NCBI RefSeq assembly: GCF_009931435.1
Contig: NZ_CP043414.1
Direction: 5' to 3' (one strand)
DNA length: 64,000 nucleotides
DNA from: Escherichia coli
GTDB taxonomy: Bacteria; Pseudomonadota; Gammaproteobacteria; Enterobacterales; Enterobacteriaceae
Part shown: in pieces, positions 18,548 through 22,856 of the stretch
How the letters are laid out: each line of letters begins with the position of its first letter
Position numbering within the stretch: the stretch's first letter is position 1
Program-made: the position numbers and the translations under genes
Notes under the pieces: model-generated
Told to the model about the DNA's origin: nothing
Seen by the model: the letters and a program-made list of their open reading frames with translations, nothing else
Databases searched by the model: none

Positions 18548-18569
18548 GAAAAACCCGCCGAAGCGGGTT
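18548..18569 (-). terminator. Rho-independent terminator after hok (same stem-loop as 17703-17724)
   Basis: AAAACCCGCCGAAGCGGGTT, followed by a T-run on the minus strand. Confidence 0.55.
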
Positions 18570-18637
18570 AAGTGCGGGTGCGTTGAGGATGCCTGACACA
18601 TCAGAGGTGGCGAGGGATTTCTCCCCCGCCAGGTCTC

Positions 18638-18793
18638 TTACTCCTCAGGTTCGTAAGCTGTGAAGACAGCGACCTCCGTCTGGCCGGTTCGGATTCGTAC
18701 CTCGCAGAGGTCTTTCCTCGTTACCAGTGCCGTCACAATGACGGTTAAACAGATGACGATCAGGGCGATTAACATCGCCTTTTGCTGCTTCAT
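18638..18793 (-). CDS. hok: Hok/Gef-family type I toxin (HokD/RelF-like, 51 aa)
   Basis: MKQQKAMLIALIVICLTVIVTALVTRKDLCEVRIRTGQTEVAVFTAYEPEE matches recalled HokD/RelF; the ORF track extends the frame upstream. The sok antisense RNA is expected around 18.8-18.95 kb but is not mapped. Confidence 0.85.
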   Translation of the reverse strand: MKQQKAMLIALIVICLTVIVTALVTRKDLCEVRIRTGQTEVAVFTAYEPEE

Positions 18794-19640
18794 AGCCTGC
18801 TTCTCCTTGCCTTTCGGCACGTAAGAGGCTAACCTAGATTTGCCGTTCATAGATTGAGCCTCAGATTAATGTTAAGCGTCTTGCAGGACGCGTAATGTTA
18901 ACTGGGGCTTTTCTATATCTGCCTTTGGTGTTCATGCCTGAGACAGATAGCCTCAAGCACCCGCAGCCATTGTACTTAACTCCCGTTACCTCGCCAATAT
19001 AAAATCAATCAGAAAGGCGATCCATAAGGACAATAGCAAGACAATAAATTGCCATTACCCGCAATAGCCAGCGCACATTTGAGGACCAGCACGACAACTT
19101 TCTGTATCGGACGTACACCAGTCCTGATAAATACAAGGCGGTCTCATCAGTGATGAAATGCAACTATTGAGTACAGTTTCTCTGATTTTTCTGTAAAACA
19201 TGGAACACAACAACTAAATATAACTAGCACTTCTTAAGATGTACAAATTCAGAGTTAAGATAACGTAAGCAGTTTTCTCAAAACTAAGTGTAAATTTTTA
19301 ATGAAGAGCAGTGCTATGCTCCTGATCATATATTCATTGTTTGGAACTGGAGGAATATTTAGGTTGCTGGAGTGGTTGATTGAATTTAAATCAACTAAGA
19401 CAAAAACCAACAATTAAAGATATGTGGTATATCAGAAAACAACTATCCGTATATTACTACAGAATTAAATACTAGCAACAAAGCTGTCTTTATTGATTTT
19501 TTATCTGATATCGAAATAAATAAACATAAAATAACCAACTAATTAAAACAGAGACTCGACAATGAGCCTCTATCTATTGTAACAGCACTTCCAAATTTAT
19601 TTTAGTAAGATAATAGCATGGGGCATACTAGCCCCATCTT

Positions 19641-21143
19641 TTAAACCGTTTCATCAAGGAAATACTTAGACGAATCATCCTGTTTCGGTTGATATGTTTT
19701 TTTTGCAGAATTAAGAACTCTTCTTAGTTCTTTTCTTAACTCAGGTAAACGCTCCTGAAGAGGGTTAGAACACCATTGTGAAGGCAACCCTCTTATAATA
19801 GCTTCGGAACAAAGCGGTGAAATAAGTTTTTCCATTTGATAATAGAAAGTTTTTGCTCGACTTACACGCATTGTGATCCTTTTTATTACATCTCTTTCAG
19901 ACTCAATTCTAGCACTCAGATCTCTTAATCTACTCCATACCTTAGCATCAGCAATATATGTATCATAAAGCATACACTCTATAAACGTGAAATTACTAAT
20001 AAGTTCTTTTGCAATATACCCCCCCAGCCGAGAAGGAATGAAACTTGATGAAGCTGTTGGATCTCCGTGATTTACGGTGAACAAAAACCTTTTATTGCAT
20101 AAATCAACGAGAACTCGATGCGTGAAAGAGTCACCTATACCAATTAACCTTAACTTTTCAGTTATTACCGAACCATCGATTTGTCTGAATCCGGGATCGC
20201 TTGCATACGAAACGATAACATTAAGAATGTACAGCCTCAATAATTGCATTTGTGTCACAGCTAAATTCGAATCAAACGGGTTCGCAATAGTCGACGTTGA
20301 CTCGCTATAAGTCAACTCAGTACCCAGTAATATAGCTCTAAATGCCTCATGACGTGGAAGAAGATATCTTCCTTGTTCTCTGAAAATTTGTACTGCTTTA
20401 CCTGGACTCGTATACCCTCTTTCTAAGAACTCACGAGTCATACGTAATGCTAATCGAACATCATCCGTAGCAAGAACTTCAATACGTGTTCCAATCTCAC
20501 TTCCCAGCACAGACCCACTAATAATATCGACTAATTGTGATATATCATCCAATACAACTTTAGCGCCATTTTCTGCAATAAAATTTCCACTTTTATTACT
20601 TGTCATATACTTTACTAGTGCAAAGCGTTTTGCAATCACACTACTTATTCTCGGTGGATCTATTTGTATAACTTCAAAATCGAAAGCATCTATAGCAGGT
20701 GAGTTTTTATGTTTGATAAATGTAGACTGCCTCAATGAAAGTACTAAATTTAATGAAAGCGCTCTGGAAATTGAAAATGACTCGGTAAATATCCGGGACT
20801 GGATATCATCAAACTCGATCTGATCAACGTTATCAATAACAAGAAAAAAAGATGTCTCTTTTGTAACACGACTTATTATTTTATCAACATAAGGTTTTAT
20901 CTTTTTATATTGTTCATATAAAAAATCCGAGATTCTGGTATTTTTTTGATCCTCACTCAATAAAAAAAGAGGTCCTGATTTTATCGCCTCAATATCTTCT
21001 CGAAATGCATCAAATACAAAATCCTTATTACTCAAAACAGGATGCTTATTGATATATTCCAGAATTGATTTATAAATAAAATCGACTATTGAACTTTCTG
21101 ATGGATTATCTAGAAAGTCTATATGAACCCAATGCGGCGTCAA
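19641..21143 (-). CDS. 3' ORF of split nuclease-NTPase gene: Walker B-like FFLVIDNVD plus ~400-aa C-terminal region; track start is TTG and the frame is open further upstream
   Basis: Same strand as, and overlapping frame with, the upstream ORF across an A8 tract; hhhhDxxD motif ~100 aa into the ORF; AT-rich. Confidence 0.6.
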   Translation of the reverse strand: MTPHWVHIDFLDNPSESSIVDFIYKSILEYINKHPVLSNKDFVFDAFREDIEAIKSGPLFLLSEDQKNTRISDFLYEQYKKIKPYVDKIISRVTKETSFFLVIDNVDQIEFDDIQSRIFTESFSISRALSLNLVLSLRQSTFIKHKNSPAIDAFDFEVIQIDPPRISSVIAKRFALVKYMTSNKSGNFIAENGAKVVLDDISQLVDIISGSVLGSEIGTRIEVLATDDVRLALRMTREFLERGYTSPGKAVQIFREQGRYLLPRHEAFRAILLGTELTYSESTSTIANPFDSNLAVTQMQLLRLYILNVIVSYASDPGFRQIDGSVITEKLRLIGIGDSFTHRVLVDLCNKRFLFTVNHGDPTASSSFIPSRLGGYIAKELISNFTFIECMLYDTYIADAKVWSRLRDLSARIESERDVIKRITMRVSRAKTFYYQMEKLISPLCSEAIIRGLPSQWCSNPLQERLPELRKELRRVLNSAKKTYQPKQDDSSKYFLDETV

Positions 21144-21147
21144 GATA

Positions 21148-22146
21148 TCACATTGATTTGAAAAAAAACTCTTTTATTCTAACCTTTCTCATGTAATGAA
21201 GAAATGTTGTTTTACCTGCACCTACAGTCCCAAGTAACAAGATCGCGAGAGGTTTGTCATTCCTGACTTTTATTTTTTTCTTCCCTTTAACCTGAAACTT
21301 ATCAACTATTCTTTTTGTATCTTTATCATTAAGCCCTTTTAGTACTTCACCATTCAGCACACTTGAACGCCTACCTATATTCATTCTAATTTTACTATCG
21401 AATCTCATAGTTTCTGGTGTTGAAACATAACATTTATCAAAGGAGTCTTCATCCAAGTAAAGTATAGAATCAGAAAAAGCCAACCTTAATTCATCAGCAA
21501 TCAAATGATATATTGGATTATTTGTCTGTGTTCTGTTTTGTTGCGAATAAAAATTTCTTAATTTTCTAAATTCTATTTGATTTTCGACGCGACCTAAAAG
21601 TGCTGTTTCTAGACTTCCTGATATAACATTTTCACGACTAAGTAAATCATAGAATTCTTGATAATTATCATTTAAGCAATCTTCTAACGACCAGAACACA
21701 AGCGCTATTGAATCATTAAATTTGACATTGTCATGCCTCTGAGCTGCAAAACATGCCCATACATTTCCATTCGTAGCGACAGCATAATCTATACCAAATT
21801 TCCTGGCGTAATCTCTAGCTTGTATTATCGCTTCACCAAGATCACTTTGTAAAAAACTATTACTTAGCTTTATTTTTCTTTTTCCTGGAATTGTACTAAA
21901 GCTTGGCCCTGCCTTTTTAGCTTCAACAACAAGAGCAATATTAGCTGTTTTTAGTATATAATCAGCATAAGTTGTCAAACCATCTTCAGTCACATGCTCT
22001 TCTGGTTTTATATCACTATCAGTCCACATCAAGACTTCCTTTAATACCCGATCTATCACTTTTAGTCTTGTGGCTGCTTCATTTGCATTTTCTAATTGTA
22101 AATGATGATAAGCTGATAATATTTCCGAAATAAATGTTTTCTCCAT
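21148..22146 (-). CDS. 5' ORF of split nuclease-NTPase gene: N-terminal PD-(D/E)xK (HsdR-N/Mrr-like) nuclease domain plus Walker A P-loop
   Basis: N-terminus ANEAATRLKVIDRVL...YADYILKT...ALVVEAKK...QARDYA...YAVATNG (restriction-endonuclease-like fold); C-terminus LAILLLGTVGAGKTTFLHYM (GxxGxGKT), then a stop 22 codons later inside the homopolymer. Confidence 0.65.
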   Translation of the reverse strand: MEKTFISEILSAYHHLQLENANEAATRLKVIDRVLKEVLMWTDSDIKPEEHVTEDGLTTYADYILKTANIALVVEAKKAGPSFSTIPGKRKIKLSNSFLQSDLGEAIIQARDYARKFGIDYAVATNGNVWACFAAQRHDNVKFNDSIALVFWSLEDCLNDNYQEFYDLLSRENVISGSLETALLGRVENQIEFRKLRNFYSQQNRTQTNNPIYHLIADELRLAFSDSILYLDEDSFDKCYVSTPETMRFDSKIRMNIGRRSSVLNGEVLKGLNDKDTKRIVDKFQVKGKKKIKVRNDKPLAILLLGTVGAGKTTFLHYMRKVRIKEFFFKSM

Positions 22147-22856
22147 AGATTATTCTCTCTATAAAAAATAACGAAAATTTTTCTGATTAGTTTTACCGCA
22201 TTTAGTTACAATAACCTAGCTATGTCAAGTCTGATGTTATCCTAAATTTCATTTTTGTTATATTATCCTCTAATTCTTAAGGCACACGTTTGAAAAGCGT
22301 CGACTTTCTCCTGTATGCTCTGAAGGTATCATTTACTCTGATTTTTCACGCAGTGTGCCGGATAGTTTTCTGTCAGGATAGAGCCCTAGATGACACGGAT
22401 GACCGCTGATGACCTGAATATGATCATGTCGCTAACATTCGCCATGGGTAATATTATTAGCCAATCCCGCCCCATCTGTTCATTCTGCTCCTGAATGCCC
22501 CCCCCCCGAAGTCAGCAGACTATGGCCTCGTTGCTGACATGCTCAGAGCCAACTCCTTACCCCCTTACGTAGAAGCAATCTCAGGCACCATTAGTGATTA
22601 CGGTAACCGAGCAGTTGTATTACACCGAACCGACTACCGCTATCATCAACACCTATCTTTGGGGCATAAAAGCGTGGCATAAAGGAAGCAACTAGGCAGT
22701 GATTATGTAAGTACATCTGTAAAACGGACCATCCATTTTAAATATCCTCTGATCCCCCTCAATATCCACCTCTAGCACAAAGCGGACAACCACGCTAGCT
22801 CTCCCCTGTACCATGAAAATTTCAATTCACATATGTATTAATGCTCTTTAGTCTCT

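Follow-up and report, generated by a model that had tools for sequence, protein, structure and literature searches.

The gene considered here lies in a window of 64,000 nucleotides of Escherichia coli DNA (the whole stretch that was analysed) and is carried by a lambdoid prophage inserted at yccA, within a variable cargo segment (18979..22774, minus strand) situated between the DUF977/replication genes and hok/sok. The disrupted gene as a whole extends over 19641..22146 on the minus strand and is 2506 nt long here, as opposed to 2505 nt when intact. A terminator-like GC hairpin (19618..19637, minus strand), recognised by a consensus match only, is found 4 nt past its stop codon, and the sok antitoxin RNA of the adjoining hokD/sok module (18788..18962, minus strand; Rfam) marks the edge of the conserved prophage backbone. 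Apart from sok, the Rfam search returned only a weak isrK-like match downstream of the gene and nothing in the region upstream of it, and sigma-70 promoter-like sites were not in excess between positions 19300 and 22900 (13, versus 14.5 in shuffled sequences). The same cargo segment contains, 352 nt upstream of the ATG, a C10 run (22498..22507; G10 in the gene sense) which is hypervariable, ranging from 7 to 11 nt among near-identical copies. In strain JCKP02 a near-identical prophage is present at yccA, with other genes in its cargo segment.

Plus-strand positions 21160-21169 read G-AAAAAAAA-C, which places a run of eight A (T8 in the coding sense) at 21161..21168, one nucleotide longer than the in-frame T7 of intact alleles. 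In the 834-aa protein the run corresponds to codons E326-F327-F328-S329, and it is the repeat length that sets the reading frame, T7 being in frame and T6 and T8 out of frame. A preliminary description of this DNA had placed the junction between two open reading frames exactly on the run, and this is where it was found: a 332-aa ORF with an ATG start (21148..22146, minus strand; WP_250696197.1 at NCBI) ends there in VRIKEFFFKSM and a stop codon, and a frame of 500 aa continues. The N-terminal fragment contains the nuclease core (D62/E75/K77) and Walker A (G306-T314), followed by five out-of-frame residues and the stop, and the C-terminal open frame (19641..21173, minus strand) holds Walker B (D438-Q442) and the remainder of the protein, the break at codons 327-329 thus separating invariant Walker A (306-314) from Walker B (438-442). 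The downstream frame is open from a TAA at 21176-21174 to 19641, begins with KSFFSNQCDILTPHWVHIDF directly after that stop, and overlaps the upstream frame across the A8 run by about 26 nt, in good agreement with the approximately 25 nt reported previously. Deleting one base from A8 does give the read-through that had been predicted, in the form of an uninterrupted 834-aa ORF (...KEFFSNQCDILTPHW...). The downstream ORF also proved, as described, to start with a TTG and to lack an ATG or ribosome-binding site of its own: its first start codon is the TTG at 21143, from which the gene caller obtains 500 aa (WP_250696198.1), no Shine-Dalgarno-like purine run is present in the preceding sequence TTTCAAATCAATGTGATATC, and the first ATG is found 190 codons further in.

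The intact product (834 aa) joins an N-terminal PD-(D/E)xK (HsdR_N-like) nuclease to a central AAA_16/KAP/STAND-like P-loop NTPase, has a helical/winged-helix region at its C-terminus, and corresponds in PHROGs to phrog_14719, annotated as 'unknown function'. About 400 homologs were obtained at E<=1e-3, all of them single ORFs, and the best 120 are mostly 810-880 aa long. Across 37 diverse members of the family there is no variation at D62/E75/K77, in the GxxGxGKTT motif (306-314) or at D438/N439/D441/Q442, and D62, E75 and K77 sit in a beta-strand core of the N-terminal PD-(D/E)xK effector domain. Matches to HSDR_N and HSDR_N_2 were seen in homologs and were weak in the query, and Pfam searches identified AAA_16 and KAP_NTPase in 12 of the 37 members at E<=1e-3, with NACHT and nSTAND5 remaining sub-threshold. 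Structural matches found with Foldseek include ORC/Cdc6, plant NLR (NRC) resistosomes, Apaf-1 and RdrA, with E-values from 1e-5 to 1e-3 and low TM-scores, and a sequence search of the PDB gave generic P-loop matches only. PADLOC has no family for the protein, its sole match being a weak one to mREase_II (E=2.9e-4, 48 residues), and the NCBIfam profile search returned nothing meaningful for it. A full-text literature search for WP_001349602 found no mention of this accession, and a search for literature on a single-gene defence system made of HsdR_N and a P-loop yielded nothing specific.

Relatives of the gene were found in a Rac-like prophage (in the equivalent cargo slot), in a Pf-like filamentous prophage (at its end), in a Vibrio phage-like island, next to an nSTAND3 gene in a Klebsiella island, and on conjugative plasmids, and the neighbours of family members include nSTAND3, Abi_2 and HepT/MNT; in the INPHARED phage collection no copy of the gene was found. 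The family resembles STAND/NLR-like antiviral ATPases with nuclease effectors (the Avs family and bNACHT) and KAP-type defence NTPases in its N-terminal PD-(D/E)xK nuclease followed by a P-loop NTPase, in the likely fold of that NTPase (judging by the ORC/Cdc6, NLR and Apaf-1 matches) and its C-terminal helical region, and in its low GC content and carriage by prophages, plasmids and islands. It differs from Avs and bNACHT in that the protein is only about 830 aa long, lacks a recognisable repeat sensor such as TPR, and matches neither a PADLOC nor an NCBIfam model. We know of no defence phenotype reported for any member of phrog_14719. Because the layout is that of single-protein, NTPase-gated nuclease immune sensors, an anti-phage or superinfection-exclusion role is plausible for the nuclease-NTPase, which may be regarded as a candidate on the strength of its domains.

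A comparison of tract length in related strains, proposed in the preliminary description, gave a uniform result for complete genomes: in all seven E. coli genomes carrying the gene (at an identity of >=99.6%) the tract is A7 and a single CDS of 2505 nt encodes the intact 834-aa protein (WP_001349602.1 and its variants). Both metagenome contigs containing the tract that were returned by a JGI/ENA scan are T7 and intact, and the exact T7 translation of the window gene is present on 335 contigs. On this evidence the functional form of the tract is A7, and the copy in the window, one nucleotide longer, is a +1 slippage allele. The Klebsiella/plasmid ortholog reads GAG ATT TTT TCA at this site (A followed by T6, in frame), and residue 327 is variable across the 37 diverse family members compared.

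Disrupted alleles at the focal tract (T6, T8 and a C deletion) were found on eight contigs, a count that is inflated by the fact that these alleles were found through a shared 500-aa C-terminal fragment. T6 occurs on at least three SNP backgrounds (alleles L009/L010, L011 and L015), in allele L012 T7 is kept and the following C is deleted, and alleles with T5, T9 or T10 were not found among the contig alleles. Such OFF alleles make up about 2% of contigs (8 versus 335 with the exact intact protein), are present in none of the seven complete genomes, and appear to be stably inherited in small lineages, one comprising the window and allele L013 and another L009 and L010. When counted like for like, using exact N-terminal fragments, the focal tract accounts for four contigs as against 2, 1, 1, 2 and 0 at others. 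The status of the focal tract as a statistically special hotspot is therefore unproven, its higher count stemming from ascertainment via the shared C-terminal fragment. Several short cluster members (P0006, with 398 aa on 58 contigs, P0013, P0015 and P0010) were considered as further truncation alleles and rejected as contig-end artefacts, T7 being intact wherever it was covered.

The gene is also disrupted at other places. Alleles differing by one base were found at four other 7-mers (-1 at T7@1178, +1 at A7@1199, -1 at T7@1296 and +1 at G7@2121), and the gene is interrupted by IS1 in E. coli H7 and by IS903B on Serratia plasmids. At its longest run, an A8 at gene position 2442 that lies 20 codons from the C-terminus, no +/-1 alleles occur among the contig alleles. 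With a GC content of 34%, the gene is unusually rich in runs of 7-8 nt: the E. coli allele has seven runs of at least 7 nt, compared with 3.5 expected from synonymous-codon shuffles (P about 0.006-0.01), whereas the same test showed no such enrichment in four other members of the family.

Taken as a whole, the locus is probably (with a probability of roughly 0.75) an ordinary +1 slippage pseudogene of a rare gene, acquired horizontally as prophage cargo, and not a dedicated device for phase variation. Among the options raised by the preliminary description, permanent inactivation fits best; the gene is normally intact and has A7 in all seven complete genomes. Replication slippage from T7 to T8 (coding sense) in the prophage cargo gene would have introduced the extra T, which shifts the frame 13 codons past Walker A, brings a stop after five aberrant residues and leaves the downstream two-thirds, from Walker B onward, without a usable start. 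Because the frame breaks after Walker A and the part containing Walker B has no start, the truncated product is presumably unable to act as an NTPase, which would make the gene a pseudogene in the lineage of the window. T8 would then be one of many independent loss-of-function alleles, attributable to homopolymer instability in a run-rich gene of 34% GC together with selection that, for an accessory gene, is likely to be weak or negative. The best reading is therefore that an accessory gene is being lost repeatedly by mutation. Slipped-strand frameshift pseudogenes of enterobacteria such as the AT 8+mer loci in Salmonella (PMC8538453) are alike in that a +/-1 change in a run splits the ORF, sister strains are intact and the tract is hit repeatedly; no essential difference from them is apparent, and what is unusual here is the excess of runs and the independent lesions at five of them.

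The preliminary description had also allowed for a reversible ON/OFF switch. The gene would then be a phase-variable contingency locus in which the T tract, perhaps aided by other runs and by the G tract upstream, allows lysogen populations to hedge between bearing the burden of a costly or autoimmune defence gene and losing it, and some of the variation is of the kind such a locus would show: T6, T7 and T8 are all natural at the site, T6 having arisen on several haplotypes, the E. coli allele exceeds its synonymous shuffles in long runs, as a contingency model would predict, and the upstream tract is hypervariable (G7-G11). The lack of +/-1 alleles at the C-terminal A8, where a frameshift is least likely to destroy function, is likewise a hint that frameshifts survive where they inactivate the protein. 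Classical simple-sequence phase-variable genes of Neisseria, Haemophilus, Campylobacter and Bordetella (PMC5084427, PMC1891110) share with this gene a frame-setting homopolymer in the 5' third of the ORF and natural length polymorphism, but the focal tract is short (merely 7 nt when ON), is not conserved in orthologs and is rarely found OFF. Indel rates grow exponentially with run length (PMC8510543), and a 7-nt ON tract is accordingly a point against a switch. Further arguments against it are that the tract is missing from the Klebsiella ortholog and includes a variable residue, that the enrichment in runs is not shared by other members of the family, that OFF alleles seem stable within lineages and do not extend to T5, T9 or T10, that variation is not specific to the tract but also affects the four other 7-mers, and that insertion sequences inactivate the gene as well, which amounts to one-way decay. 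Classical A/T phase switches have tracts longer than 7 nt, and E. coli is, to our knowledge, not a species known for homopolymer-based switching. With an ON state of T7, an unconserved tract and variation at other 7-mers, an evolved reversible device is unsupported and we consider it unlikely, whereas reversion of T8 by slippage is physically possible.

A related proposal is that the E. coli allele has evolved mutational fragility, in which a twofold excess of 7-8 nt runs and the hypervariable G7-G11 tract upstream would continually produce, in lysogen populations, OFF variants of a costly or autoimmune immune gene that occasionally revert. We regard this as unlikely; if true, a defence gene carried by a prophage would be under contingency-style control in E. 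coli, for which homopolymer switching is not known.

It is also conceivable that the strain is truly A7, with an intact gene, and that T8 is an error of sequencing or assembly, which was the third option of the preliminary description. Homopolymer length is the commonest consensus error in long-read assemblies. Over 4071 nt, a contig that Logan assembled from SRR7527707 shows no difference from the window, shares its private SNP 20868T, and likewise has T8, so that a k-mer assembly made from reads gives the same length on an identical background. At the nearby G run this contig has G8 and the window G10, which implies either that a homopolymer in the region was miscalled in at least one of the two assemblies or that the strains differ. 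The reads of SRR7527707 may be the same as those underlying the deposited assembly, so that an artefact common to both is conceivable, as is heterogeneity in tract length within the culture. Elsewhere in the window, which contains 40 long homopolymers (A/T of at least 7 nt, among them five 8-mers and 26 7-mers, and G/C of at least 6 nt), the other 39 bear no frameshift signature, and when a one-base correction was tried at each of the 40 runs, only that at the focal tract joined two ORFs and so gave a far longer frame (from 1530 to 2505 nt). Over 34 kb of core chromosome, alignment with a 98.3% identical relative revealed two single-base gaps, neither of which is in a long run. Because the SRR7527707 assembly agrees, the 39 other runs are unshifted and the core alignment is clean, an assembly error is unlikely.

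Another alternative accepts T8 as real and supposes the allele to be leaky, with slippage on U8, either transcriptional or ribosomal (+1), yielding small amounts of full-length protein, so that the gene would be attenuated and not null. Slippage of RNA polymerase does occur on A/T runs, and runs of 8-9 nt are documented as being put to productive use (PMC1088944); the sequence also indicates that tRNA-Phe could re-pair perfectly on the U-run after a +1 shift. However, transcription errors in A/T runs of E. coli are overwhelmingly +1, deletions starting in runs accounting for less than 1% of deletions (PMC5574713), whereas T8 requires -1 or +2 to restore the frame. In addition, selection against slippage becomes evident in many bacteria at about 9 nt (PMC1088944), the A site offers neither a stimulatory stop nor a rare codon, the next codon being UUC, and the frameshift is conserved in no homolog and is thus not programmed. 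A leaky allele is therefore highly improbable. Programmed recoding or programmed transcriptional slippage was rejected, since none of the homologs listed is split: in known cases such as the A9 runs of IS elements, Thermus dnaX and Shigella mxiE (PMC1088944, PMC5009743), two overlapping frames likewise meet at an A/T run, but there the split is a conserved functional state, whereas here it is confined to one lineage.

For annotation, the preferred reading of a slippage pseudogene means that WP_250696197.1 and WP_250696198.1, currently 'hypothetical proteins', represent two parts of a single broken gene, for which a pseudogene flag is appropriate. There is nothing out of the ordinary in the frameshift, and the value of the locus is that it points to phrog_14719, an uncharacterised protein family, widespread on mobile elements, that is missing from current catalogues of defence systems. 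The natural T6, T7 and T8 alleles constitute ready isogenic controls for an anti-phage test. Temperate phages of very different kinds carry the family in their cargo slots, it is also found on conjugative plasmids, and it is repeatedly lost in E. coli; because of this combination of mobile carriage and repeated loss its members may reasonably be considered candidates for a costly anti-phage gene.

The gene (19641..22146, minus strand) is interrupted at a run of eight A on the plus strand, where positions 21160-21169 read G-A8-C and two open frames share about 26 nt. The first of these is an N-terminal ORF of 332 aa (21148..22146, minus strand) with an ATG start and the C-terminal end ...VRIKEFFFKSM, and the second, on the same strand, extends from a TAA at 21176-21174 to its stop at 19641, with the sequence KSFFSNQCDILTPHWVHIDF... 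after that TAA; removing one base from the run yields a single ORF of 834 aa. The earliest possible start of the downstream frame is a TTG at 21143, upstream of which no Shine-Dalgarno sequence was found, and its first ATG lies 190 codons beyond. The preliminary description, which had placed two overlapping frames on the A8 run, proposed read-through upon deletion of one A and noted a TTG start with neither an obvious ribosome-binding site nor an ATG of its own, was correct in all of its elements. There are five A/T 8-mers and 26 A/T 7-mers in the window, and out of 40 long homopolymers tested by ±1 correction only the focal run produced an ORF fusion (from 1530 to 2505 nt). The public annotation treats the halves (21148-22146 and 19641-21143) as two hypothetical proteins, WP_250696197.1 and WP_250696198.1, and does not join them into a single frameshifted pseudogene; both are recorded on a 5.13-Mb contig in a collection of 15 billion proteins.

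The comparison of tract length in related strains, suggested as a check, was carried out with megablast, by which the gene was found in seven of 5,426 complete E. coli genomes at an identity of at least 99.6%. It spans 2505 nt in all seven, is annotated there as one 834-aa hypothetical protein, and its tract is A7 in 7/7, as it also is in two metagenome contigs; T7 in the coding sense is therefore the ancestral, functional state and the window carries a +1 expansion. The exact T7 translation of the window gene occurs in 335 contigs of the protein collection. A short member of the protein cluster (P0006, 398 aa, 58 contigs; loci L016-L019) is an artefact, because the contigs of draft assemblies often end within this AT-rich gene or shortly before it, whereupon callers take an internal start; its tract is T7 wherever covered.

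Over its full length the repaired protein corresponds to phrog_14719 ("unknown function"; E = 2.9e-301), and no family was matched in PADLOC or NCBIfam. The homologs number about 400, and most of the best 120 among them are single ORFs of 810-880 aa, from Aeromonas, Cupriavidus, Pseudomonas, Vibrio, Sphingobium and other hosts. In a 37-member alignment the PD-(D/E)xK nuclease signature (D62, E75, K77), Walker A (G306/G309/G311-K312-T313-T314) and Walker B (D438/N439/D441/Q442) are invariant; Pfam AAA_16 and KAP_NTPase were matched in 12 of the 37 members (E<=1e-3), and HSDR_N, NACHT and nSTAND5 gave weak matches only. An AlphaFold2 model (mean pLDDT 78.7) resembles ORC/Cdc6, plant NRC resistosomes, Apaf-1, RdrA and TnsC (E 1e-5 to 1e-3); the TM-scores are low, which is normal for a multi-domain query. 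Motifs, Pfam and fold matches therefore indicate the order nuclease effector, STAND/KAP-like NTPase, helical/winged-helix C-terminal region. Codons 327-329, where the reading frame shifts, lie between Walker A and Walker B, and the predicted 332-aa product retains the nuclease and P-loop and cannot be a working NTPase.

Further focal-tract alleles were sought by lookup of the 500-aa C-terminal fragment, which occurred in seven places: T6 in five contigs (L009, GCA_053469045.1; L010; L011; L014; L015), T8 in L013, a Logan contig of SRR7527707, and, in L012, a T7 that has lost the C next to it. The T6 alleles lie on at least three SNP backgrounds (21682C shared by L009 and L010, 22421T in L011, an L002/L007-type haplotype in L015), and the tract has therefore been struck independently several times. 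As a control, ±1 N-terminal fragments were predicted for every other run (T6 at gene position 291, A7 at 868, T7 at 1178, A7 at 1199, T6 at 1221, T7 at 1296, G7 at 2121, A8 at 2442) and each was looked up by exact sequence. Present were -1 at 1178 (WP_251990794.1), +1 at 1199, -1 at 1296 and +1 at 2121 (WP_250313626.1); this lookup found neither +1 nor -1 at 868, 2442, 291 or 1221, nor focal T5, T9 or T10. With like-for-like contig counts of 4 versus 2, 1, 1, 2 and 0 at others, the focal tract is the most often struck run in the gene, yet not unique. In E. coli strain H7, one of the seven genomes, an IS1 insertion (L007, 5009-5706) independently disrupts the same gene, and its ortholog was independently split by IS903B on Serratia marcescens plasmids NZ_CP011641.1 and NZ_CP029448.1. 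The longest run, A8 at 2442 (window 19697-19704, codon 814/834), lies 20 codons from the C-terminus, and the protein collection contains no ±1 alleles of it, whereas five shorter upstream runs have them; possibly persistence is confined to inactivating frameshifts, the counts being too small for a conclusion.

Among the three options originally offered, we favour a pseudogene allele, with a probability of about 0.75, over phase variation and assembly error. The mechanism is probably the repeated, one-way loss of an accessory gene at the sites where it mutates most readily, rather than a dedicated switch, because the ON tract is short (T7) and unconserved (the Klebsiella/Serratia/Enterobacter ortholog, 87% identical in nucleotides, reads GAG ATT TTT TCA, i.e. 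A+T6, in frame), OFF alleles are rare (about 2%) and appear to be inherited within small lineages, and they occur alongside similar lesions at other runs and IS insertions. These points make it unlikely that the tract serves as a reversible ON/OFF switch; reversion of T8 is possible in principle. Indel rates grow exponentially as runs lengthen (PMC8510543), and the E. coli allele has seven runs of at least 7 nt (positions 868, 979, 1178, 1199, 1296, 2121 and 2442) versus 3.5 ± 1.2 expected from synonymous-codon shuffles (P about 0.006-0.01), an excess absent by the same procedure in the Klebsiella, second E. coli prophage, P. aeruginosa and Vibrio genes. Given protein sequence and codon usage, T>=7 at E-F-F-S arises in 32% of shuffles.

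A sequencing or consensus error, the strain truly having A7 and an intact gene, is slightly less probable still. The independently assembled L013 is window-identical over 4071 nt and carries both T8 and the window's private synonymous SNP at 20868, although the deposited assembly may itself derive from SRR7527707; no other homopolymer of the window looks frameshifted, and 34 kb of core chromosome align to the nearest complete genome with only two gaps, each of one base and outside any long run. Even the nearest of the 5,426 genomes shares only 98.3-98.4% identity with that core (30000-64000, yccA to ssuB/pepN), and the source lineage is therefore not closely represented among them. In favour of an error is a mismatch at a nearby G run, G10 in the window versus G8 in the otherwise identical contig. 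This run, which is C10 at 22498-22507 and lies within the gene's own cargo segment 352 nt ahead of the ATG, varies far more than the T tract does, with lengths of 7, 7, 8 (x6), 9 (x4), 10 (x3) and 11 over 17 near-identical copies, and could be a true hypermutable tract with a possible regulatory effect or a sequencing difficulty. Least probable is partial restoration of frame by slippage, which would take an RNA-level -1 or +2 or a +1 ribosomal shift, whereas in E. coli the errors of transcription in A/T runs consist almost entirely of +1 insertions, with deletions beginning in runs below 1% of deletions (PMC5574713), and the codon after the run is an ordinary UUC; selection against slippery runs is evident from about 9 nt (PMC1088944), and any leakiness should be small.

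The frameshifted allele lies in a lambdoid prophage that makes up the window's first ~33 kb beside yccA, between DUF977/replisome-organizer/YdaT and hokD-sok, DUF968, RusA and Q. Strain JCKP02 carries a near-identical prophage at this site, in which unrelated genes replace 18979-22774, a stretch that is therefore a variable cargo slot. The hokD/sok module (18548-18962; sok RNA 105 bits) directly flanks it, adjoined by a weak isrK-like match (26 bits, below gathering). A terminator-like hairpin follows the gene's stop codon, and no promoter for the gene can be claimed. Relatives occupy the same slot of a Rac-like prophage in opposite orientation (47%-identical, E. coli), the end of a Pf-like filamentous prophage (P. 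aeruginosa), a phage-like island (Vibrio), an island adjoining an nSTAND3 gene, Abi_2 and HepT/MNT (Klebsiella), and conjugative plasmids of Klebsiella, Serratia and Enterobacter; loci of the family include L025 8001-10451, L027 8001-10511, L029 8001-10457 and L020-L023 6001-8505. GC is low (34-36% in enterobacterial and Vibrio copies, 43% in Pseudomonas). The literature searched gave no phenotype, and the mobile-element distribution is as expected for a candidate anti-phage or exclusion gene. The frameshift itself is an ordinary phenomenon; its by-products are modestly interesting, namely an uncatalogued candidate defence family that is borne by mobile elements and repeatedly lost in E. coli, and the hypervariable G tract upstream of the gene.
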